Source: Candidatus Multivoradales bacterium
GTDB lineage: Bacteria; Acidobacteriota; Thermoanaerobaculia; Multivoradales; JAHEKO01
Direction of reading: 5' to 3'
Assembly (NCBI GenBank): GCA_965223155.1
Contig: CBDCVR010000002.1
Span: 1-15,805 of the forward strand
DNA length: 15,805 bases
Shown here: positions 1,545-15,259 of the stretch, one piece after another
Numbering within the stretch: position 1 is the stretch's first letter
How the letters are laid out: every line of letters begins with the position of its first letter
Program-made: the position numbers and the translations under genes
The notes under the pieces: generated by a model
Told to the model about the DNA's origin: nothing
Database searches by the model: none
What the model saw: the letters and a program-made list of their open reading frames with translations, nothing else

Positions 1545-2054
1545 TTTTTTCAACCGCTTCGTCACTGGCTCGGAGTTCTTTTCGTTTTGCTCGCAGGGTG
1601 CTTCCACCTCGCATGCGTCGTGGCCAAGTCCCCATCCGCAGGTTATTTCTCTTCGCTGGACTACCAGGCCTGCGACACCTTGCGACAATCTCTCTTCAAG
1701 GAAGACCTGTCGCTTCTCTCCAACGAGGAGATCGAGATCATCCTGTCTTCCAAGATCGAGCTGCCGCGTGACGCGCGGTTGGCGCTGCTTCAACTAGGCG
1801 GGGATCCTCACGTGTTGGTACTGCCGGCGCCGGATGCCGAGGAGGACCAATCTCTGGCGGCGCTGTTTGAACGTCTTGCAGCCGCCGAGCGCCTTTCATC
1901 GGTGACTCTCCTGCCGTCGCTTCTGGTTCCTTCGACGCTTTCCGTTGCGAAGCTACGGGAAGCCGCCGCGCGCTTTCAAGCGGACCTCCTCTTCAGCTAC
2001 CGGACGCCCTGCCAGCAGTATCACCGAAATCGCTTCCTCAGGGAAATCCGCTGA
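1545..2054 (+). pseudogene. Lipoprotein gene lacking a proper start, possibly also C-terminally truncated
   Basis: The frame upstream of the listed TTG (1587) reads FFQPLRHWLGVLFVLLAGC, a signal peptide with an LAGC lipobox. It is closed by an in-frame TAG at 1542-1544 with no start codon before the hydrophobic stretch. Confidence 0.5.
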
Positions 2055-2117
2055 CAGGATACCTATTTCAAGGGAAGAATCCGGCCGCAAAGGGACACTC
2101 GAAATATGTATCCTTCT
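2052..2117. repeat. Imperfect inverted repeat whose right arm is the IS insertion site
   Basis: Left arm TGACA-GGATAC-C-TATTTC (2052-2069). Right arm GAAATA-T-GTATCC-(TTC)-TGTCA, completed only when 2101-2117 is joined to 3477-3480. Confidence 0.75.
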
Positions 2118-2131
2118 ATGAGTCGGTCGGT
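2118..2131. repeat. Sub-terminal inverted repeat, right end (IRR)
   Basis: ATGAGTCGGTCGGT, the exact reverse complement of 3456-3469. Confidence 0.93.
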
Positions 2132-2134
2132 TGG

Positions 2135-2160
2135 CGTCAAGAGTTTCGTTTCTTCTTTTT
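2135..2160 (-). promoter_or_regulatory. Outward-facing -35 hexamer with A-rich upstream tract, a candidate half of a circle-junction promoter
   Basis: The minus strand reads AAAAAGAAGAAACGAAACTC-TTGACG just inside IRR. The best -10 candidate across the junction (TAGATG, 16-nt spacer) is weak. Confidence 0.45.
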
Positions 2161-2370
2161 GTAGTTTTCCTTAGGTTTGGATCGAGGCTTGGGACGAGCT
2201 TCTATTCGCACTCTGTAGGGTTCTTCTTTGAACCGGTGCATGGTGAGTTTTGCGTCCGTTTAGGAATCGATGCTCCCATCTGTCACACGGTGTCGGGGCC
2301 ACCAAGGATACTTTCGGAGTCATCGAACCTCTCAATCCGTCCTTGCTTGTTGGTCGTCTAGTTATCTCTT
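2160..2370 (-). ncRNA. Putative bridge/seek RNA of the IS1111-group element (ends approximate)
   Basis: Unit 1 (2326 to 2267): ucgaug-a-cucc-gaaa-GUAUCCUU-ggug-loop-cacc-gu-GUGACAGA-ug-ggag-caucga, where both 8-mers match the IS flanks. Unit 2 (2257 to 2192): ggacg-caaaacucaccau-gcac...gugc-gaAUAGAAGcu-cgucc, with a partial match to the element end. Confidence 0.85.
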
Positions 2371-3384
2371 CTACGCTGCCTTGGGAAAGGCTCGGAAGCT
2401 CTCACCTGTCACCCACAGCCTGTGGAGCAACACCGCGATCTTCCTAGCTAGCGCGACCACGGCCTTGCCCTTACCCAGCCTCTCGACCAGGCCCTCAGCC
2501 CATCTCTTGAGTGACGACTCTTTGCGACAGTTCAACGCCGCATGAGCTGCCTGCACCAAGAGTCTGCGCATCTCCGAGTCGCCCTCGCGAGTGATCCGGC
2601 CCCTGACCTCATGCCCTCCTGAGCTGCGAAGCGACGGTCTCAAGCCCAGACACGCTCCGACGTCGCGGCTTTTCTCGAACCGATCCGGACGATCCATCCA
2701 GCCGACGAACGCAAGGCTCACCAGAGGCCCCACACCAGGAACCGTCTGCAGCCGACGGACCAGCTCGTTTGATCTCGACTCGGAGATGAGGTCGTCTTCG
2801 AGATGGTGGATCCGATCGGTCAGCTCGCCGATTGTCGTTACCAGAGGTTCGAGCGCTCCCAACAGGCCGGCTTCGACCGACATCGACGCGTACCGAGCCA
2901 CGAAGCTCTTCGCCGGACATGAGGGCACTCGGTAGCCCTGTGCCCGCAGCGTTCCGCGTACGGAGTTGATCAGCGAGGTCCTGGTCTTCACCAGACTCGT
3001 TCGGACCCGAAGACGCGTCCGAAGCTCTTGGGCCTCACCTGTGCGCTGGTAGACTGGTCGAAGCAAACCCAGATCCAACCGGCTCAAACGAGCCAGGATC
3101 TCGGCGTCGATTCCGTCCGTCTTCAGGGTCGATTCCGCGATCAGACGTACCCGGCGTGGATTGACCACCATCACCTCATGGCCGAGCTCAGACAGCAGTC
3201 GATAGACCCAGGGTGTGACCGGACCGCTCTCGAGCGTCACCTGCGAGCGTTCCCGATTGGCGAAGAACCTTCGCAGGCCCGTCTCGGTCGTCGGAACCCG
3301 CCGGCGAACCGTCACCTCACCGTCTTCTGATACGCCACACACCTCGCTGTACTTCGAGTGAACATCGATGCCAAGATACTCCAT
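2371..3384 (-). CDS. IS110-family transposase/recombinase, 337 aa
   Basis: RuvC-like DEDD residues (GIDVH, TLES, KTDGIDA), TVPGVG motif, and the Tnp-domain serine motif GLRPSLRSSGG followed by GRITREGD. Start placed at ATG 3384 (MEYLGIDV) because AAAGGAG lies just upstream. Confidence 0.96.
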   Translation of the reverse strand: MEYLGIDVHSKYSEVCGVSEDGEVTVRRRVPTTETGLRRFFANRERSQVTLESGPVTPWVYRLLSELGHEVMVVNPRRVRLIAESTLKTDGIDAEILARLSRLDLGLLRPVYQRTGEAQELRTRLRVRTSLVKTRTSLINSVRGTLRAQGYRVPSCPAKSFVARYASMSVEAGLLGALEPLVTTIGELTDRIHHLEDDLISESRSNELVRRLQTVPGVGPLVSLAFVGWMDRPDRFEKSRDVGACLGLRPSLRSSGGHEVRGRITREGDSEMRRLLVQAAHAALNCRKESSLKRWAEGLVERLGKGKAVVALARKIAVLLHRLWVTGESFRAFPKAA

Positions 3385-3462
3385 GGTCGGTCTCCTTTCT
3401 CGGCTCTGATGCCGATTCTTGGTTATCTCCAACTGGCACAGTGTCCCAGCTGGAGACCGACC
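3385..3462 (-). promoter_or_regulatory. Transposase RBS with an anti-SD inverted repeat
   Basis: GGTCGGTCTCC (3385-3395) and GGAGACCGACC (3452-3462) form a perfect 11-bp inverted repeat. On the minus-strand RNA it covers the GGAG Shine-Dalgarno up to the ATG. Confidence 0.7.
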
Positions 3463-3469
3463 GACTCAT
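3456..3469. repeat. Sub-terminal inverted repeat, left end (IRL)
   Basis: ACCGACCGACTCAT, the reverse complement of 2118-2131. Confidence 0.93.
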
Positions 3470-3507
3470 CTCATCTGTCACCGAATTCGCGAGCAAAGAA
3501 TGTAGAA

Positions 3508-3807
3508 ATGCCAGTAGCCCTACTCTACGTGATTCAATACTTCGTCTGGTTTGGTGGCCTCGCTGTTTGGCCAACGCTGCGACTGTTGCAAGGGACGAGC
3601 CGGGCAGAAGACCTCCTGCTCGGATCAATCTTCTTTCTGCACATTGTGGCCCAGACTTGGGCTCTCCGCCTGGTTGCGTCTTGTCGGGACACTACGCCCG
3701 ATTGGCTGCATTGCTTGATCGTCCCATTCTTGGTTGGCGTTCTCTCTATTATCGCTTCAGCGGTCGTCTTAGGGGTTACGCGCCACAAGCGTAAATCCCC
3801 GAAGTAG
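3508..3807 (+). CDS. Small membrane protein (about 3 TM), possible orphan immunity protein
   Basis: MPVALLYVIQYFVWFGG... has three hydrophobic segments and a basic tail. The longer listed ORF (from 3358) starts inside the IS, so ATG 3508 is preferred. Confidence 0.55.
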   Translation: MPVALLYVIQYFVWFGGLAVWPTLRLLQGTSRAEDLLLGSIFFLHIVAQTWALRLVASCRDTTPDWLHCLIVPFLVGVLSIIASAVVLGVTRHKRKSPK

Positions 3808-5129: not shown

Positions 5130-8100
5130 GTGACCTCGATTGCGGGCGACTGCCCGGCCTGCGGCCTCGGACCCAACAGCCAGCTCGTCTACGACGACCC
5201 GGACCATCCGCTGCTCCCTACCCGCTCGATCGACGGCCGCGGCACGGTCACGGCCATGGCCTACGACGCCAACGGCCGCATGACCTCGAGGACCGAAGCC
5301 CTCGGCACTCCTGAGGAGCGCACCACGGCTTGGAGCTACGACGATCCGGCCTTCCCGGCCGTCGCCACCACAATCGAAGAGCCCTCGACAACTGCCGGAG
5401 CCAGTGGAGCCAGTGGAGCCAGCCGCACCACGACCCTCGTTCTCGGCGCCGACGGCCATCCCACCACCCGCACCGTCTCGGGGGTCGAGGCCGCAAGCGC
5501 CTTCTCGCTTACCACCACCACCACCTACACCGCCGAGGGCCAGATCGAGACGATCGATCCGCCCGGCTTCGGCACCGACGACGTCACCGTCTTTACCTAC
5601 GACCCCGCCCGGGGCGGCCAGATCCCGCTCTCCCGCACCGACCCCGTCCTCGGCAGCCTTCCGAACGGAGGCGCCACCACCTACGCCTACGACCCCTTCA
5701 ACCGCCGAACCTCGGTCACCGACCCCAACGGCGTCGAGACCGTCACCGCCTACGACGCCGCCGACCGCGTGACCTTCGTCACCCACAAGGGCACGACCGC
5801 CGCCGAGGACCTCGTCACCGAGAACCGCTACAACGCCTTCGGGGACCTCGCCCTCACCATCCTGCCTCAAGGCAACGCCATCGAGTACGCCTACGACTCC
5901 GCCGGACGCCTGACCTCGATCGGGCGCGGCCCCGCCCCCGGGGCCCTCCTCGAAAGGACCCTCTACGAGCTCGACGCCGCCGGCAACCGCACCCGCGAGA
6001 CGCTCCAGGGCTTCGACGGCTCGGCCTGGACCACCGCCTCCGAGACCGCCTACCTCTACGACTCCCGATGCCAGCTCGACAAGATCGTCCGCGCCCCCGG
6101 AACCCCCCAAGAAGCCGTCACCGAGTACCGCTACGACTGCAACGGCAACCTCGAATCCCTCTGGGACGCCAACCACTCCTCGGCCTCCGATCCCCCGACC
6201 CAGAGCTACACCTACGACCGCCTGGACCGGTTGACCGGGATCGACCAGCCCTGGGCAACTGGGCAACCAGGAGAGATGGCAACCACCACCTACGCCTACG
6301 ACGTCCAGGACCACCTCGTTGCCGTCACCGACGCCGAGGGCAACACCACCGCCTACGTCTACTCCGACCGGGATCTTCTGACCCGCCAGGACTCCCCAGT
6401 CTCCGGGGCCTCGACCTTTGCCTACAACGACCACGGCGAGCTCGTCTCCGAAACCGACGGCCGCGGGGTCACCACCACCCGGACCATCGACGCCGCCCGC
6501 AGGGTGACCTTCGTCGATTCCGAAGAGAACGCCCTCGATACCGCCTACACGTACGACGACCCCGCCGTTGCCTTCTCGGCCGGACGCTTGACCGCTATCT
6601 CCCGCAACGGCCACTCCATCGACTACGCTTACGACCGCTTCGGACGCACCATCCAGGACGGCACCCTCGCCTACGCCTACGACACGAACGGCAACCGCAC
6701 CGCAGTCACCTACCCAGGCGGCGTCACCGCCACGACCACCCACGACTACGCCGACCGGGAGGAGACCCTGGCCGTCACGGATGGCGGCAGCGGAGGAGGC
6801 ACCACCAACCTCGTGACCGCCGCCGCCTATCTCCCCTCGGGCCCCCTCACCTCCCTCGCCCTCGGCAACGGCTTGGCCGAGACCCGATCCTTCGACTCGA
6901 GGTACTTCCCGGCCGGCATCACCGTCCCCGGACGACTCGACTGGACCTACTCGACCGACACGATCGGCAACATCCTAGAGATCGCTGACACCGGAGGAGG
7001 AGGCGACCGAACCTACACCTACCAGGACGTCCACTACTTCCTCACCTCGGGCACCGGACCCTGGGGCAGCCTGGCCTTCACCTACGACAAGATCGGCAAC
7101 CGGTTGTCTGAGACCCGGGACGCCGGCGGTTCTCCCCAGAACCGGCCCTACGCCTACCCGGCTTCGCCTTCAGGAGGCAACCTCCCCAAGCTCGCCTCGA
7201 TCACGGACCCCGCGGGAGACCGTCTCGAGCGCTTCTTCTTCGACGACGCCGGCAACCAGACCTACCGCGCCACTCAGACCGCCAAGCACCGGCTGAGCTA
7301 CGATGCCCTGGGACGGATGAGCCAGATCAAGACCGACTCGGACGAGACCGCCGGGGCCCTCGTCACCCTCGCCTACGACGGCAGAAGCTTCCTCCGGGAG
7401 GCCACTCGAAGCCCCTTCCCCGGCCAGCCCGCCACCGTCACCACCAACCCCACCTACAGCTCCGACGGGCGCCTCATGCACAAGGCGACGAGCGAGGTGC
7501 TGGGACCGGACGACCCGAGAGGCGAGGGGAGTGCCACCAGCGACGCCTACGTCCTCTACTTCGCCGGCAGGCCGGCCGGCATCCTCGACAATGAGACCGT
7601 AATTCCACTCGGTGGACCGCCGACCAGCACCTCGACCCTCACCTACTTGACCACCGACCACCTCGGCACCCCCGTCCTCGCCACCGACGCCAGTGGAGCC
7701 AGTACCTGGAGTGGAGGCTTTGAGCCCTTCGGGGACGACTGGCAGGCGCAGGCCGGTACCGGGGCGAGTGAGGCGGGGGTCTTTCTGAGGTTTCCCGGGC
7801 AATGGGACGATGCGGCCTGGGGCGGGGCGGGAGCGGGGGCGGGGGCCGCTAGTGCCTCAGACCCGGGCCTCTACTACAACGTCCACAGGTGGTACGAGCC
7901 GGGGACGGGGAGGTATGGGAGGGTCGATCCGCTGGGGTTGGTTGCTGATATCCATCTCTATCGCTACGCGAAGCAGGACCCCTTGACTTGGATCGATCCT
8001 CTCGGGTTGCAGCTTGTGAAACCTCCTGACATTCCCTACTTTGAGCCACCTGGTGACAACCTACCCCCCAACTGTTCGGCTGGACCCTGGGTCTTCGATG

Positions 8101-8456
8101 ACTTCGGCGTTCGGAGTGAACCCCAAGAAATGCAATGGGTGCTCCGGCGCGCTCAGCGAAAATGGGTGCGGATCCCACCTGCTTTTGGCATAGCACTACC
8201 AATCCCGACCGGCAGTTGTGACTGCTTCTATGTTCCGAGAGGCCTCATTCAGCCCCATCAGCGAGTAGAGCGGTGGAAGCGTCGTCTGGAATGCGACGGC
8301 TGCCCCGCCGGAGAAGAAACGCGGCTACGGGATGCAGCAGAACCGGAAAGTCAGTGGGAAGACAGAGTTCCTGTCCTACCTGCGAATGGTGTTCGGAAGA
8401 CGACTGCTCCGGGCTGTCTTTGCCAACCAATTCTGACTGAAGCCCCGCCGTCATGA
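5130..8456 (+). CDS. 5'-truncated (orphan) Rhs/YD-repeat cassette with an unrecognised Cys/Pro-rich C-terminal toxin
   Basis: Many YD repeats, a complete core terminus (DHLGTP, RFPGQW, DPLGL at 7995-8009) and a 148-aa tail. DNA homology to the long copy begins abruptly at 5106 (equivalent to 11518), so the GTG at 5130 is an internal Val codon. Confidence 0.92.
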   Translation: MTSIAGDCPACGLGPNSQLVYDDPDHPLLPTRSIDGRGTVTAMAYDANGRMTSRTEALGTPEERTTAWSYDDPAFPAVATTIEEPSTTAGASGASGASRTTTLVLGADGHPTTRTVSGVEAASAFSLTTTTTYTAEGQIETIDPPGFGTDDVTVFTYDPARGGQIPLSRTDPVLGSLPNGGATTYAYDPFNRRTSVTDPNGVETVTAYDAADRVTFVTHKGTTAAEDLVTENRYNAFGDLALTILPQGNAIEYAYDSAGRLTSIGRGPAPGALLERTLYELDAAGNRTRETLQGFDGSAWTTASETAYLYDSRCQLDKIVRAPGTPQEAVTEYRYDCNGNLESLWDANHSSASDPPTQSYTYDRLDRLTGIDQPWATGQPGEMATTTYAYDVQDHLVAVTDAEGNTTAYVYSDRDLLTRQDSPVSGASTFAYNDHGELVSETDGRGVTTTRTIDAARRVTFVDSEENALDTAYTYDDPAVAFSAGRLTAISRNGHSIDYAYDRFGRTIQDGTLAYAYDTNGNRTAVTYPGGVTATTTHDYADREETLAVTDGGSGGGTTNLVTAAAYLPSGPLTSLALGNGLAETRSFDSRYFPAGITVPGRLDWTYSTDTIGNILEIADTGGGGDRTYTYQDVHYFLTSGTGPWGSLAFTYDKIGNRLSETRDAGGSPQNRPYAYPASPSGGNLPKLASITDPAGDRLERFFFDDAGNQTYRATQTAKHRLSYDALGRMSQIKTDSDETAGALVTLAYDGRSFLREATRSPFPGQPATVTTNPTYSSDGRLMHKATSEVLGPDDPRGEGSATSDAYVLYFAGRPAGILDNETVIPLGGPPTSTSTLTYLTTDHLGTPVLATDASGASTWSGGFEPFGDDWQAQAGTGASEAGVFLRFPGQWDDAAWGGAGAGAGAASASDPGLYYNVHRWYEPGTGRYGRVDPLGLVADIHLYRYAKQDPLTWIDPLGLQLVKPPDIPYFEPPGDNLPPNCSAGPWVFDDFGVRSEPQEMQWVLRRAQRKWVRIPPAFGIALPIPTGSCDCFYVPRGLIQPHQRVERWKRRLECDGCPAGEETRLRDAAEPESQWEDRVPVLPANGVRKTTAPGCLCQPILTEAPPS
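5397..5423 (+). repeat. 9-bp tandem repeat GGAGCCAG(T/C) x3, encoding GAS x3
   Basis: Three units here versus one unit at the homologous site 11809-11817. Confidence 0.9.
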
Positions 8457-9880: not shown

Positions 9881-9987
9881 AGGTGAGGCCCGACATGCTG
9901 AGATGTCTAGGCCTTCGAGTTGCATCGATCTCGAAAAGGCTGCTCAACCATCGACCGACCATCCCATCCGCCACCTCAATCGTCGAA

Positions 9988-12900
9988 TTGCGTTTCCGCG
10001 AACGCGCCGGCCGGCGCCGCCAGGCGGCCCGGCTGTTGCTCCTCGCGGCGAGCGGGATCGCCTTCCTCTGGGCCACCCCGGCGGCGGCCCAGAACAACTG
10101 CTTCGGGGACGTCACCTGGGGCGGCGACGTCGACTCGACGATCGCAAAGCCCGAGAACTGCACCGCGGACACCCGCTGCTATCCACCCGAGCTTGCCGGC
10201 TCGGGAGTTTCGTTCGCTCCGGGCTGCGACCCATCGGCCGGGCCCTGCGACGTCACCGTCACGGCCCAGCTCCGCTTCCCCGGCAACCGGGACAACGAAG
10301 ACTTCGTCGATGCCTCGGGCCTCGCCTACAGCTTCGCGACCTTTGCCGTCTTCGACAACACCGGCTCCGGCGTCGGCGGCTGCGGTGTTGCCGGCGCGGT
10401 CATCCAATGGGACACCGGCACCGCGACCATCCGCGGCCAGGCCAAGAAGGGCGACATCTTCACCATCGTCGCCCGCGCCTGCCCGTGCTCGCCCGAAGGC
10501 CTCTGCCCCCTGTGCGAGAAGACCGAGTCCTTCGTCATCCCGATCGGCAGCCCGCCGCCCCAGGACGACTGCGACGACTGCAAGGCCTGCCCGCTGCCGG
10601 GCGCTTCGGCCGGCGGCGGCGGGCCCAAAGGGACCACCGAAACCAACTCCGGCCCCGAGACGCTCGTCTACTACACCGCCGGCGGCACGGGCGCGCCCGG
10701 CACCCCCGGCGCCGACGAGCACGCGGCCACTCTCGGCCACGGCTTTGCCCACAACTTCTCCGAGCGGCTCGTCGCCGTCCCCGACGACCCGTACGACAGC
10801 GACCGCATCTGGATGCTGACCCGCAAGGGCACCTTCCGCCAGTTCTGGAACCTCCAGGGCGGCGAGTACCTGGGCACCGCGCCCTCGGACGAGTACCGCA
10901 CGCTCTTTGCCACGGCCGCGGGCTACGAGCTTCGCGGCCTCGACGGCACGGTCCAGAGCTTCGATGCCGCCGGCGTCTGGACCGGCACGGCCGACGCCTC
11001 GGGCAACGCCACGACCCCTGCCTACGACGCCTCCGGTCTTCTCACCGCGGTCGCTCTCCCCGACGGCAGACAAGAGACCTTCACCTACCACCCGGCCGGC
11101 TCCGGCCAGGACGGCAAGCTTGCCTCGATTGCCGAGGTCGGCATCGACGGCACCTCGACCCTGACCTGGACCTACACCTGGTCCGGAGACACCCTCGTCC
11201 GGATCGACGCCCCGGACGGCACCGCTCTCGCCTACGGCTACGACGACCCGCGCCACCCGGGCTTTCGAACTCTGACCGAACGGATCGGCACCGACGCGAG
11301 CCGCCGCGTCGAGCGCGGCTACGCCTACGACGACGAGGGCAACGTCGTCCAGACCTGGAGAGGCGATACCGTCCCCGCCGTTGCCGGAGTGAGCGCTTCG
11401 CTGCCCGGATCGAACGCTGTCGATCACGAGACCTTCGCCTTCGACGACCCGGTCAACCCGACCGTCACCACCAGGACCGACGCTCTCGGCAAGATCGCGA
11501 CCTACGCCATCGGCCGCGACCCTTCGAGCGGCAAGGCCCGCGTGACCTCGATTGCGGGCGACTGCCCGGCCTGCGGCCTCGGTCCCAACAGCCAGCTCCT
11601 CTACGACGACCCGGACCATCCGCTGCTTCCCACTCGCTCGATCGACGGCCGCGGCACGGTCACCGCCATGACCTACGACGGCAACGGCAGGATGACCTCG
11701 CGCACGGAGGCCCTCGGCACCCCCGAGGAGCGCACCACGACCTGGAGCTACGACGATCCCGCCTTCCCGGCCGTCGCGACCACCATCGAGGAGCCCTCCA
11801 CAACTGCTGGAGCCAGCCGCACCACCACCCTCGTTCTCGGCGCCGACGGCCACCCCACCACCCGCACCGTCTCAGGGGTCGAGGCCGCTAGCGCCTTCTC
11901 GCTGACCACCACCACCACCTACACCCCCGAGGGCCAGGTCGCAACGATCGATCCCCCCGGCTTCGGCTCCGACGACGTCACCGGCTTGACCTACGACCCC
12001 GCCCGCGGAGGCCAGATCCCGCTTTCCCGCACCGACCCGATCGTCGGAAGCCTTCCCAACGGCGGCGCCACCACCTTCGGCTACGACCCCTTCAACCGCA
12101 GGACCTCGGTCACCGACCCCAACGGGCTCGAGACCGTCACCGCCTACGATGCCGCCGACCGCGTGACCTCCGTCATCCAGAAGGGCGCGACCGCCGCCGA
12201 GGATCTCGTCACCGTCCATCAGTACACCGCCTTCGGCGACTTGGAGCGCACCATCCTCCCCGAAGGCAACGCCATCGAGTACGCCTACGACTCCGCCGGA
12301 CGCCTGACCTCGATCGGGCGCGGCCCCGCCCCCGGGGCCCTCCTCGAAAGAACCCTCTACGAGCTCGACGCCGCCGGCAACCGCACCCGCGAGACGCTCC
12401 AGGGCTTCGACGGCTCGGCCTGGACCACCGCCTCCGAGACCGCCTACCTCTACGACTCCCGATGCCAGCTCGACAAGATCGTCCGCGCCCCCGGAACCCC
12501 CCAAGAAGCCGTCACCGAGTACCGCTACGACTGCAACGGCAACCTCGAATCCCTCTGGGACGCCAACCACTCCTCGGCCTCCGATCCCCCGACCCAGAGC
12601 TACACCTACGACCGCCTGGACCGGTTGACCGGGATCGACCAGCCCTGGGCAACTGGGCAACCAGGAGAGATGGCAACCACCACCTACGCCTACGACGTCC
12701 AGGACCACCTCGTTGCCGTCACCGACGCCGAGGGCAACACCACCGCCTACGTCTACTCCGACCGGGATCTTCTGACCCGCCAGGACTCCCCCGTCTCCGG
12801 GGCCTCGACCTTTGCCTACAACGACCACGGCGAGCTCGTCTCCGAAACCGACGGCCGCGGGGTCACCACCACCCGAACCGTCGATGCCCTAGACCGGGTG

Positions 12901-14801
12901 ACCTTCGTCGATTCCGAAGAGAACGCCCTCGATACCGCCTACACGTACGACGAGGCCCGCCGTTGCCTTCTCGGCGGGCAGGCTCACGGCCATCACCCGA
13001 GACACCCAGTCGATTGACTACGCCTACGACCGCTTCGGACGCACCATCCAGGACGGCACCCTCGCCTACGCCTACGACACGAACGGCAACCGCACCGCAG
13101 TCACCTACCCAGGCGGCGTCGCCGCCACGACCACCCACGACTACGCCGACCGGGAGGAGACCCTGGCCGTCACGGATGGCGCAACCTCGACCAACCTCGT
13201 GACCGCCGCCACCTACCTTCCCTCAGGCCCGCTCACCTCCCTCGCCCTCGGCAACGGCTTGGCCGAGACCCGATCCTTCGACTCGAGGTACTTCCCGGCA
13301 GGCATCACCGTCCCCGGACGACTCGACTGGACCTACTCGACCGACACGATCGGCAACATCCTAGAGATCGCTGACACCGGAGGCGGCGGCGACCGCACCT
13401 ACACCTACCAGGACGTCCACTACTTCTTGACTTCAGGCACCGGACCCTGGGGCAGCCTGGCCTTCACCTACGACAAGATCGGCAACCGGTTGTCTGAGAC
13501 CCGAGACGCCGGCGGCTCTCCCCAGAACCGGCCCTACGCCTACCCGGCTTCGCCTTCCGGAGGCAACCTCCCCAAGCTCGCTTCGATCACGGACCCCGCG
13601 GGAGACCGTCTCGAGCGCTTCTTCTTCGACGATGCCGGAAACCAGACCTACCGTGCCACTCAGACCGCCAAGCACCGGCTGAGCTACGATGCCCTGGGAC
13701 GGATGAGCCAGATCAAGACCGACTCGGACGAGACCGCCGGGGCCCTCGTCACCCTCGCCTACGACGGCAGGAGCTTCCTCAAGGAGGCGGCGAGAAGCCC
13801 CTTCCCCGGCCAGCCCGCAACCGTCACCACCAACCCCACCTACAGCTCCGACGGGCTTCTCATGCACAAGGCCACCAGCGAGGTGCTGGGACCGGACGAC
13901 CCGAGAGGCGAGGGCACCGCCACCAGCGACACCTACGTCCTCTACTTCGCCGGCAGGCCCGTCGGCATCCTCGAGAACGAGACCGTGACCGACTTGGACG
14001 GCGGCACCTCCTCGAGCTCGACGTTGACGTACCTCACCACCGACCACCTCGGCACCCCCGTCTTGGCGACCGATGAAACGGGGACTACCACCTGGGCCGG
14101 AGGCTTCGCACCCTTTGGAGCAGACTGGCAGGCCGAGACGGGTACCGGGGCGAGTGACGCCGGAGTCTTCCTGCGCTTCCCCGGCCAGTGGGACGACCCG
14201 GCCTGGGGTGGGGCCGGGACGGCGGGCACTAGCGCCTCAGACCCGGGCTTCTACTACAACGTCCACAGGTGGTATGAGCCGGGGACGGGGAGGTACGGGA
14301 GGGTTGATCCGTTGGTTCGATTCTCAGAGCTACCAGACTACTACGTCTACGCTGGCGCCGAGCCCCTTACATCAATAGATCCGCTCGGTCTCCTTAGGGT
14401 CGACTGCGAAAGTTGCGAGAAGATCCAGAGGGCAAGAGAGAATGTAGCGAAGCGAATCTTCCTTCTCCGCACTACAGGCACTGCGATCGATCCCTCCGGA
14501 ACCAACGTGCCGACAGCCGTTACGAATTGTGCAGAAATTCGCGTCGGCAGTGCTTCTCTTACCGACACCTTCACACAGCGACAGGAAGGTAGATTCCCGG
14601 AGTCTCCCTGTGTCTTTCTATGCACCGGAGTCCACGAACGGGTCCATCGTCGAGCGTGCACACAACTCGGCGCATCTGTCTACAATGGCCTGACAGAGAG
14701 CGAGAGAGAGCTTCCCGCCTACAACGAGCAGCTCAAGTGTTTGTTGGCTGCTTGCAGCTGGCAGCAGCTTAGGCCTTACCCGAGCGGGAGTAACTCCATG
14801 A
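9988..14801 (+). pseudogene. Full-length Rhs toxin gene with signal peptide and HExxH C-terminal toxin, frameshifted as sequenced
   Basis: ORFs 9883-13017 and 13199-15259 join into one frame if one G at 12954/12955 is removed (GAG-G-CCC versus GAC-CCC in the 5130 copy). The N-terminus RERAGRRRQAARLLLLAASGIAFLWATPAAA-Q is a signal peptide. DPLGL is at 14378-14392 and HERVH at 14633-14647. The start (TTG 9988) and the end (TGA 14801) are inferred. Confidence 0.82.
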
Positions 14802-15259
14802 GATCTCGAACAGTGCAACTAGTCGTTGTCGTTCTTGCATGCCTGACTTTCCCCGCACTATCCTGCTTCCGCGACACAGCGACACAACGATCGGGCTCTA
14901 CTCCACGTGGACAGCGAACGGATGTCTTTGGTGCGTCCGAGTCTAGAGGCCCTTCACCAGAGATTGACGCGTTGGAGATACCTAGGCTCGAGTACGAGCC
15001 GGACATGCTTGCTGTGTTGGTCGCCAGCATACAAGCAACTGTAGGGGGGCGGGCAATCGAGGTTAGGTACAAGGTGCTCGAAGACGGCTCCGTCCGTGAT
15101 TGCTCGGTCGTACGCGTCGGTGGATCAGAAGATCTGATCTCAGAACTGTCGGCGAACGACAGAGACCGCCTCTGTAGAGCCGTTGAGCTAAGACGGTACG
15201 CAGCACCACCAGAAATGCTCACGGTTAGCTTCCAATTCGGCACGCCAGCATACGGCTAG
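14798..15259 (+). CDS. Putative immunity lipoprotein with a TonB-C-terminal-like region, in frame with the toxin as sequenced
   Basis: GGGAG lies 7 nt before ATG 14798. MRSRTVQLVVVVLACLTFPALSC signal peptide. IEVRYKVLEDGSVRDCSVV resembles the TonB_C pattern by eye. Confidence 0.68.
   Translation: MRSRTVQLVVVVLACLTFPALSCFRDTATQRSGSTPRGQRTDVFGASESRGPSPEIDALEIPRLEYEPDMLAVLVASIQATVGGRAIEVRYKVLEDGSVRDCSVVRVGGSEDLISELSANDRDRLCRAVELRRYAAPPEMLTVSFQFGTPAYG

Follow-up and report, generated by a model that had tools for sequence, protein, structure and literature searches.

A candidate target-binding loop of an IS110/IS1111-type guide RNA in an insertion sequence from an acidobacterial genome

The window analyzed here is the whole 15,805-nucleotide stretch of contig CBDCVR010000002.1 from the assembly GCA_965223155.1 (Candidatus Multivoradales bacterium, Acidobacteriota). 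It carries an insertion sequence (IS) of 1362 bp with a transposase gene on the minus strand, and downstream of this gene lies a non-coding end of 256 nt (2115-2370), compared with 92 nt upstream of it (3385-3476). Judging from sequence comparison, we put at about 90% the probability that a hairpin in this downstream end, at positions 2267 to 2326, is the target-binding loop of a guide RNA of the IS110/IS1111 type and that the element is RNA-guided. The structure, the matches of its loop to the flanking DNA, the exact insertion site and the covariation of guides with flanks and of paired stem bases with each other could all be observed directly. The coordinates of the features are collected in Table 1.

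The insertion site was established from the other copies of the element that the window's genome contains (15 contigs, 4.0 Mb; the source of all copy and site counts given below). There are 14 full-length copies, including that of the window, and all 14 occupy the same site in the same orientation, with the common layout ...GTATCCT / TCTATGAG...CTCATCT / GTCACC... (left flank GTATCCT in 13 copies and GCATCCT in one). Two of the insertions could be compared with empty versions in near-identical flanks (contig C11 with C14:574424 and contig C7 with C14:366091). Written in the orientation of the transposase gene, the empty site reads GGTGAC-AG-GATAC and the filled one GGTGAC-AG-ATGAG...CATAGA-AG-GATAC, a net gain of 1362 bp, and in both comparisons the junctions share only AG (CT on the plus strand of the window). 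The element therefore extends from 2115 to 3476, and its target is a 12-bp site (5 + 2 + 5), GTATC-CT-GTCAC, entered in one orientation and without target duplication, the dinucleotide being all that is common to both junctions. The initial annotation had placed the left limit at 2118, with a core TCT and a target of about 15 bp, and these values have to be corrected: the empty site that it had rebuilt, GTATCCT-TCT-GTCAC (GTATCCTTCTGTCAC), occurs 0 times in the genome, and GTATCCTGTCAC is found empty 17 times. Uninterrupted sites containing ATCCTGTCAC number 18, and 14 of 32 sites are thus filled.

Both halves of this site recur in the internal loop of the hairpin, on its two opposite sides. 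The segments GUAUCCUU (2311-2304) and GUGACAGA (2286-2279) had been equated over eight letters each with the flanks GTATCCTT (2108-2115) and TCTGTCAC (3474-3481). They do match the halves of the site, except that the last U of GUAUCCUU and the A that follows GUGACAG (plus the next two letters, UG) fit the element's ends and not the target. The element's last base is complementary to U2304, so that the GAAAGUAUCCUU side is complementary to A-AG-GATAC, and AUG (2279-2277), on the GUGUGACAGAUG side, corresponds to the first three bases of the element beside the shared dinucleotide. Both target guides cover the dinucleotide, and the match to the top strand lies 5' of the match to the bottom strand, the two overlapping. 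When the 256-nt non-coding end was shuffled by mononucleotides, both 7-mers were found in 14 of 200,000 shuffles, and in the right order within 60 nt in one. A purely DNA-level origin would have the end of the element hold a captured or gene-converted copy of its own target, with no guiding role, and the presence of the target in a many-copy repeated host element would provide an opportunity for such an exchange. However, the two halves are not contiguous; they lie 18 nt apart, on opposite strands, and symmetrically within an internal loop between conserved stems, and the same arrangement is found for seven different targets (see below). A captured copy was rejected as the source of the loop matches on these grounds (split halves, symmetric placement and seven targets), and we find this explanation scarcely credible.

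The hairpin consists of an outer stem UCGAUG-A-CUCC/GGAG-CAUCGA, an internal loop of 12+12 nt and an inner stem GGUG/CACC (minus strand 2267-2326). Both the minimum-energy and the centroid structure contain it, whether the whole 253-nt end (2118-2370, minus strand) or an isolated 66-nt piece is folded. A structure alignment was built from the RNA of the window and seven relatives, comprising seven distinct sequences. The 14 pairs of the target-loop hairpin are paired in 100% of cases across the seven distinct relatives, with compensatory changes in one pair of the outer stem and one of the inner stem. For the two loop modules together (28 pairs), 99.0% of cells are paired and four pairs have changed on both sides, while partners shifted by one to three columns pair in only 34 to 45%. 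The covariation score of these 28 pairs is 0.121, against 0.056 in shuffles, and none of 500 shuffles reached 0.121, although the relatives are closely related (78 to 87% amino acid identity) and offer few independent events, so that the shuffle statistics overstate the significance. A closing helix that brackets both loops is seen in the minimum-energy fold of the whole end; it is paired at 81.1% across the seven relatives, three of its pairs have changed on both sides, and three sequences have U.G pairs in it. When it is included (36 pairs), 95.2% are paired and seven pairs have changed on both sides. We therefore assign the structured RNA, with moderate confidence, an extent of 160 nt (2179-2338).

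The guides of relatives change together with the flanks of their insertions. Relatives came from a sister element in the same genome (two copies, with 81.8% nucleotide identity to the element of the window), from genomes of the same genus and an Acidobacteria metagenome-assembled genome (MAG) and from metagenome contigs. Nine insertion events in which the non-coding region and both junctions are present were scored, namely, the copy of the window, the two copies of the sister element and loci L020, L023, L053, L054, L055 and L057. Left out were L024, a duplicate of L020, and L052, L056 and L065 (5' flanks GGTGACAG, GGTTCCAG and GGTTCCAG, respectively), whose contigs stop short of the non-coding region or the 3' junction. 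Loci L021, L026-L051 and L058-L067, with identities of at most 42% or partial, lie outside the comparison. The nine events carry seven distinct guides on the 5' side and three on the 3' side. Watson-Crick matches of the right half (the dinucleotide plus seven bases) to its own flank amount to 8, 7, 9, 8, 8, 8, 9, 9 and 8 of 9, and those of the left half plus dinucleotide to 7, 7, 6, 7, 7, 7, 7, 7 and 7 of 7, while the guide of the window matches the flanks of the seven elements with unrelated guides at only 2 to 3 of 9 positions. In the sister element, the guides are AAAAGGGU and GUGCCAG, and its predicted site, AAAGGGTGGCAC, occurs uninterrupted in a repeated context that one of its insertions shares. 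In L025, a more divergent element (53% amino acid identity) on a 1561-nt contig and with a larger first module, the right-half guide shows seven Watson-Crick matches and one wobble out of nine when read by eye.

Recognition of the target by protein-DNA contacts alone would be an alternative, since the left half of the target varies little among the relatives (three variants, differing at one or two positions) and could reflect such a contact; the structure would then be a stabilizer or attenuator in the 3' untranslated region of the transposase message, and the matches would be incidental or inherited. Yet the seven right-half guides fit their own flanks at 7 to 9 of 9 positions while the transposases stay 78 to 87% identical, the two 7-mers occurred together in so few of the shuffles, and the family is described as RNA-guided on experimental grounds. 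We consider this explanation very unlikely. A target-binding loop is what the initial annotation had recognized in the stem, internal loop and inner stem of this region, and the fold, the family domains, the hallmarks of the IS1111 group and the agreement between guides and flanks all bear it out, as they do its view of the element as an intact RNA-guided recombinase. It had also proposed to test whether loops and flanks covary among homologues, and the seven and three guide variants do so, each fitting its own flanks; none of the nine events combines the same loop with different flanks. Its description of the element as potentially reprogrammable finds support in the natural variation of the guides, and this support is confined to natural variation.

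The wobbles between guides and flanks do not by themselves fix the strand of the transcript. At three single deviations, an RNA of the transposase sense would form wobble pairs and one of the opposite sense would not (rU.dG in L053 and in the GCATCCT copy, rG.dT in L057); at two others the reverse holds (L020 and, in the C13 copy of the sister element, one position). The stems favor a transcript of the transposase sense, since their G.U pairs would become A.C on the other strand: L020 has two of them among the four pairs of its inner stem, and three sequences have U.G in the closing helix. If the functional transcript were instead the plus strand, antisense to the 3' region of the transposase gene, it would pair with the opposite DNA strands or regulate the transposase. 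That strand folds almost equally well (-19.9 versus -21.5 kcal/mol) and accommodates the two deviations just mentioned, but it turns the G.U pairs into mismatches and does not accommodate the other three deviations, and IS1111 seekRNAs are of the transposase sense. A plus-strand transcript thus appears highly improbable.

The structured RNA contains a second internal loop, added here to what the initial annotation described, which probably binds the donor. The sequence AUAGAAG (2205-2199) on its 3' side repeats the right end of the element together with the shared AG. In the element of the window, three of the four loop sides read the core dinucleotide (both in the target loop and the 3' one in the donor loop), and the 5' side of the donor loop mismatches one core base. 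The donor loop and the ends of the element are both constant in the seven close relatives, hence without covariation. In L025 the left end is ATGGG (versus ATGAG), and the loop reads CCCACCA, a matched change (again read by eye).

The transposase has 337 amino acids and matches the Pfam families PF01548 (residues 5-148, E value of 8.6e-25) and PF02371 (residues 211-290, E value of 4.5e-21); its score with the NCBIfam model NF033542, "IS110 family RNA-guided transposase," is 241 bits, above the cut-off of 140. Residues D7, E52, D91 and D94 align with the catalytic acidic positions of the ISCro4 and IS621 chains, in an alignment that is weak (E values of 3e-10 for ISCro4 and 6e-10 for IS621), and GLRPSLRSSG fits the family motif GL-P----S(T)G, which puts S255 at the position of the nucleophile. 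By its sequence, the enzyme would therefore be of the DEDD/Ser type, with all five catalytic positions present. A tblastn search against a plasmid collection gave only distant matches, the best of them labeled "IS110 family transposase," at 37% protein identity or less, and a blastn search of the element against the plasmid collection gave no match. The closest named record is an Acidobacteria MAG.

Taken together, these features suggest how the element might move. It would be excised as a circle, on the model of ISEc11, its relatives and IS621, and the joining of the ends would assemble a promoter that serves the transposase gene and, through read-through, the downstream RNA. A candidate half of this promoter is the outward-facing hexamer TTGACG near the right end, which circularization would place 18 nt (17 in most relatives) from GAAGAT across the joined ends; its TTGAC (2136-2140, minus strand) is kept in nine of nine right ends of relatives, in variable surroundings. 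Junction promoters are known for IS621 and ISEc11. The RNA would probably arise by cotranscription with the transposase gene, followed by processing. By analogy with the characterized members of the family, it would then be bound by the transposase, with the module of about 160 nt (2179-2338) presenting one internal loop to the target and the other to the donor. In the target loop, GUAUCCU would pair with the top strand of AG-GATAC and GUGACAG with the bottom strand of GTGAC-AG, so that the two guides would read the 12-bp site GGTGAC-AG-GATAC from both strands and overlap on the dinucleotide, and the donor loop (2192-2257) would likewise read the joined ends of the circle. Dimers of the recombinase (with D7, E52, D91, D94 and S255) on both loops would hold the target and the joined ends together and exchange strands at the dinucleotide, a chemistry likewise drawn from the characterized systems, which would leave the circle inserted in one orientation and without target duplication. 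The extra letters of the target loop (U on one side and AUG on the other) match the terminal bases of the element itself and would thus find partners only once the strands have been exchanged, as the "handshake guides" of IS621 do, and this late pairing might favor insertion.

Several observations weigh against a target-binding loop at 2267-2326, in addition to the close relatedness of the sequences that showed covariation. Folding energy alone is not distinctive, with z-scores of -1.28 (target-loop hairpin), -2.41 (second loop), -1.52 (the two loops combined) and -0.76 (whole end), although unremarkable energies are expected for RNAs dominated by large internal loops. The only match in an Rfam scan of 1900-3700 was a chance-level one to a small nucleolar RNA model inside the transposase gene, at 14.9 bits (gathering score of 39, E value of 0.62). 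Between CUCACCA (2247-2241), on the 5' side of the donor loop, and AG-ATGAG of the left end, only five of seven positions are complementary, and the same two mismatches are found in all relatives. The left half of L025, outside the nine-event count, is out of register by one base and gives no clean match, and the two deviations that wobble only in the opposite sense also belong here. Finally, a scan of the element's minus strand detected neither a sigma-70-like promoter nor, after the loops, a terminator.

Table 1. Positions of the insertion sequence, its predicted guide RNA and its target in the window
Feature	Position	Strand	Details
IS1111-type insertion sequence, whole	2115-3476	-	1362 bp; sole shared dinucleotide assigned to the left end by convention
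Right subterminal inverted repeat	2118-2130		13 bp, perfect match to 3457-3469; 3-bp extension 2115-2117 outward
Left subterminal inverted repeat (3457-3469) with 7-bp terminal extension (3470-3476)	3457-3476		Shared CT at 3475-3476 included
Transposase gene	2371-3384	-	337 amino acids + stop; ATG start at 3384, preceded by GGAGA
Structured RNA, probable extent	2179-2338	-	160 nt; closing helix 2331-2338/2179-2186 brackets both loops
Putative target-binding loop hairpin	2267-2326	-	Outer stem 2316-2326/2267-2276, inner stem 2300-2303/2289-2292, apical loop 2293-2299
Target loop, 5' side GAAAGUAUCCUU	2304-2315	-	GUAUCCU (2311-2305) complementary to AG-GATAC, right half of target (transposase orientation)
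Target loop, 3' side GUGUGACAGAUG	2277-2288	-	GUGACAG (2286-2280), sense of left half GTGAC-AG, would pair with bottom strand
Putative donor-binding loop	2192-2257	-	Outer stem GGACG/CGUCC, inner stem GCAC/GUGC, apical hairpin
-35-like hexamer TTGACG, outward-facing near right end	2135-2140	-	Candidate half of junction promoter
Left flank GTATC-CT, target half plus shared dinucleotide	2108-2114	+	From copy flanks and empty-site searches
Right flank GTCAC, other target half	3477-3481	+	From copy flanks and empty-site searches
Repeated host element with target at its tips	2041-2114		About 70 bp, imperfect inverted ends

Comparison with published systems assigns the element by its sequence to the IS1111 group of the IS110 family, with a layout of the seekRNA type, and agreement was found in every sequence-level feature that we compared. 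Siddiquee et al. 2024 (PMC11187229) describe the seekRNA elements ISEc11, ISPa11, ISKpn4 and ISPst6 and give the IS1111 pattern as subterminal repeats of 11 to 13 bp with a left extension of 7 bp and a right one of 3 bp, and seekRNAs in which the top-strand match comes first, an order reversed relative to IS110-type elements. The present element shares with these a DEDD transposase of 330 to 350 amino acids with the motif given above, subterminal repeats with the 7- and 3-bp extensions, a long non-coding region downstream of the gene, insertion in one orientation without duplication and the top-strand match in first place. It differs from the named IS1111 seekRNA elements in its host phylum and its target and in being known here from sequence alone. 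Published seekRNAs measure 82 to 96 nt, and a "long" form has been described as well; the structured RNA here has a probable extent of 160 nt. Durrant et al. 2024 (PMC11208160) predicted a bridge RNA, situated in the right end, for 93.0% of the IS1111 elements cataloged in ISfinder.

The likeness to the bridge RNA of IS621 (PMC11208160; Hiraizumi et al. 2024, PMC11208158; PMC13626964) lies in the presence of a target and a donor loop, in the reading of both strands and in the overlap at the core dinucleotide, although here the 5' side of the donor loop mismatches one core base and, in the sister clade, the two target guides disagree at the second. Further parallels are letters next to a guide whose pairing would have to await strand exchange (handshake guides), one donor guide with an interrupted match, a -35 box of the right end that would complete a promoter once the ends are joined and, as target, a repeated palindromic host element. 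On the other hand, the RNA lies downstream of the gene here, whereas the bridge RNA of IS621 lies in the left end, upstream of the recombinase gene; the order of the guides is reversed, since IS621 has the bottom-strand left target guide (LTG) 5' of the top-strand right target guide (RTG); the subterminal repeats are long; and the protein matches the IS621 and ISCro4 chains weakly, as noted above. By description only, the short target in a repeated dyad-symmetric element can also be likened to those of IS4321/IS5075 and ISPpu9/ISPpu10, IS110-family elements that target inverted repeats of mobile elements or repetitive extragenic palindromic (REP) sequences. Among the papers listed (12 of 29) in a full-text literature search, none linked Acidobacteria with IS1111/IS110, bridge RNA or seekRNA (the ISfinder database and the supplementary tables of the 2024 papers were outside this search). 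The class of mechanism, the downstream location of the RNA and the layout of the loops are already in print, and the view of this element as a further example of a class known since 2024 is well supported.

The copies in the genome support an intact and recently active element. Eleven of the other 13 full copies are identical over 1362 bp, and the remaining two deviate by a single substitution (equivalent to 2458 of the window) and by a 1-nt indel (near 2179), respectively. The occurrence of filled and empty versions of matching loci in one assembly suggests recent movement of the element in the sampled population. The small contigs C2 (the window), C7 and C11 repeat parts of C13-C15 at 94 to 99.8% identity with a differing IS content, which suggests that the assembly includes alternative alleles or strain variants. 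One further IS copy, on C7, is split by a different repeated element of 1372 bp (C7:11411-12782), other copies of which are located at C11:5664-7035, C13:299686-301056, C14:571680-573051 and C15:374675-376045; the halves of the split copy overlap by 8 bp (query 392-399), which looks like the target duplication of another insertion-sequence family. A solitary left-end fragment of 42 bp (C13:299287-299328), 97.6% identical and flanked by GGTTCCAG, also occurs, with the sister element's copy on C13 about 125 bp away.

The host sequence around the site is itself repeated. In the window, the far tip of the host element (about 2052-2065) is a copy of the target with one mismatch, in inverse orientation. 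Over the genome, the host repeat around the 12-bp target shows dyad symmetry, with the consensus gaaATa.GTATCCTGTCACCG.aTt, and it is often present as two inverted copies about 45 bp apart, resembling a tiny element with inverted ends. Short tandem repeats of the CACC-containing half are often found downstream of the site (for example, at C14:304868 and C7:5516), and duplicated half-sites are also seen in the flanks of relatives from other genomes (L023, L053, L054 and L057). In the window, the IS sits in an array of Rhs-repeat proteins (PF05593 and PF03527; positions 2-838, 5130-8456, 9883-13017 and 13199-15259, all on the plus strand), interspersed with small open reading frames without a family match. 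The array is paralogous to C15:950-982 kb, at 90 to 97% identity, and looks like a polymorphic-toxin locus with orphan tips.

One clade of relatives showed a different pattern at the crossover. This sister clade consists of the 81.8%-identical element of the same genome (C13:297857-299161 and C15:372320-373624) together with L023, L053 and L055. Its target guides disagree at the second base of the overlap, where the 5' side reads AC and the 3' side AG. The left junctions carry AG, the dinucleotide of the donor, in nine of nine events, and the right junctions carry AC in four of five events of the sister clade, which fits a crossover with one shared base between target and donor and not a random resolution of a two-base heteroduplex. 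A search of the genome of L023 for uninterrupted sites of this element found two with AC at the overlap, two with AG and one with GC, none of them in a shared repeat context, so that either dinucleotide might belong to the target. Among all events, the left half-site varies only between GTGAC, GTGCC and GTTCC, and the right half differs freely (seven variants). Retargeting has thus proceeded almost wholly through one guide arm, suggesting that the left half-site is constrained by something besides the RNA. It is conceivable, if on balance rather doubtful, that target and donor share a single crossover base, that the 3' guide reads five bases of the donor and that a non-RNA factor limits the left half-site. 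If true, this would be a variant of the rule for IS621 that all four guides read one identical core dinucleotide.

The element opens no new question by itself, but it would add a compact (337 amino acids) and evidently active RNA-guided recombinase from Acidobacteria to the family. Its retargeted relatives, with near-identical scaffolds, donor loops and ends and seven different right half-sites, may serve as a map of the free and fixed loop positions for the engineering of bridge RNAs and seekRNAs. For the biology of the genome, the element appears as a colonizer of a repeated dyad-symmetric host element, at the occupancy given above, and such a target would offer it many equivalent "safe" sites.

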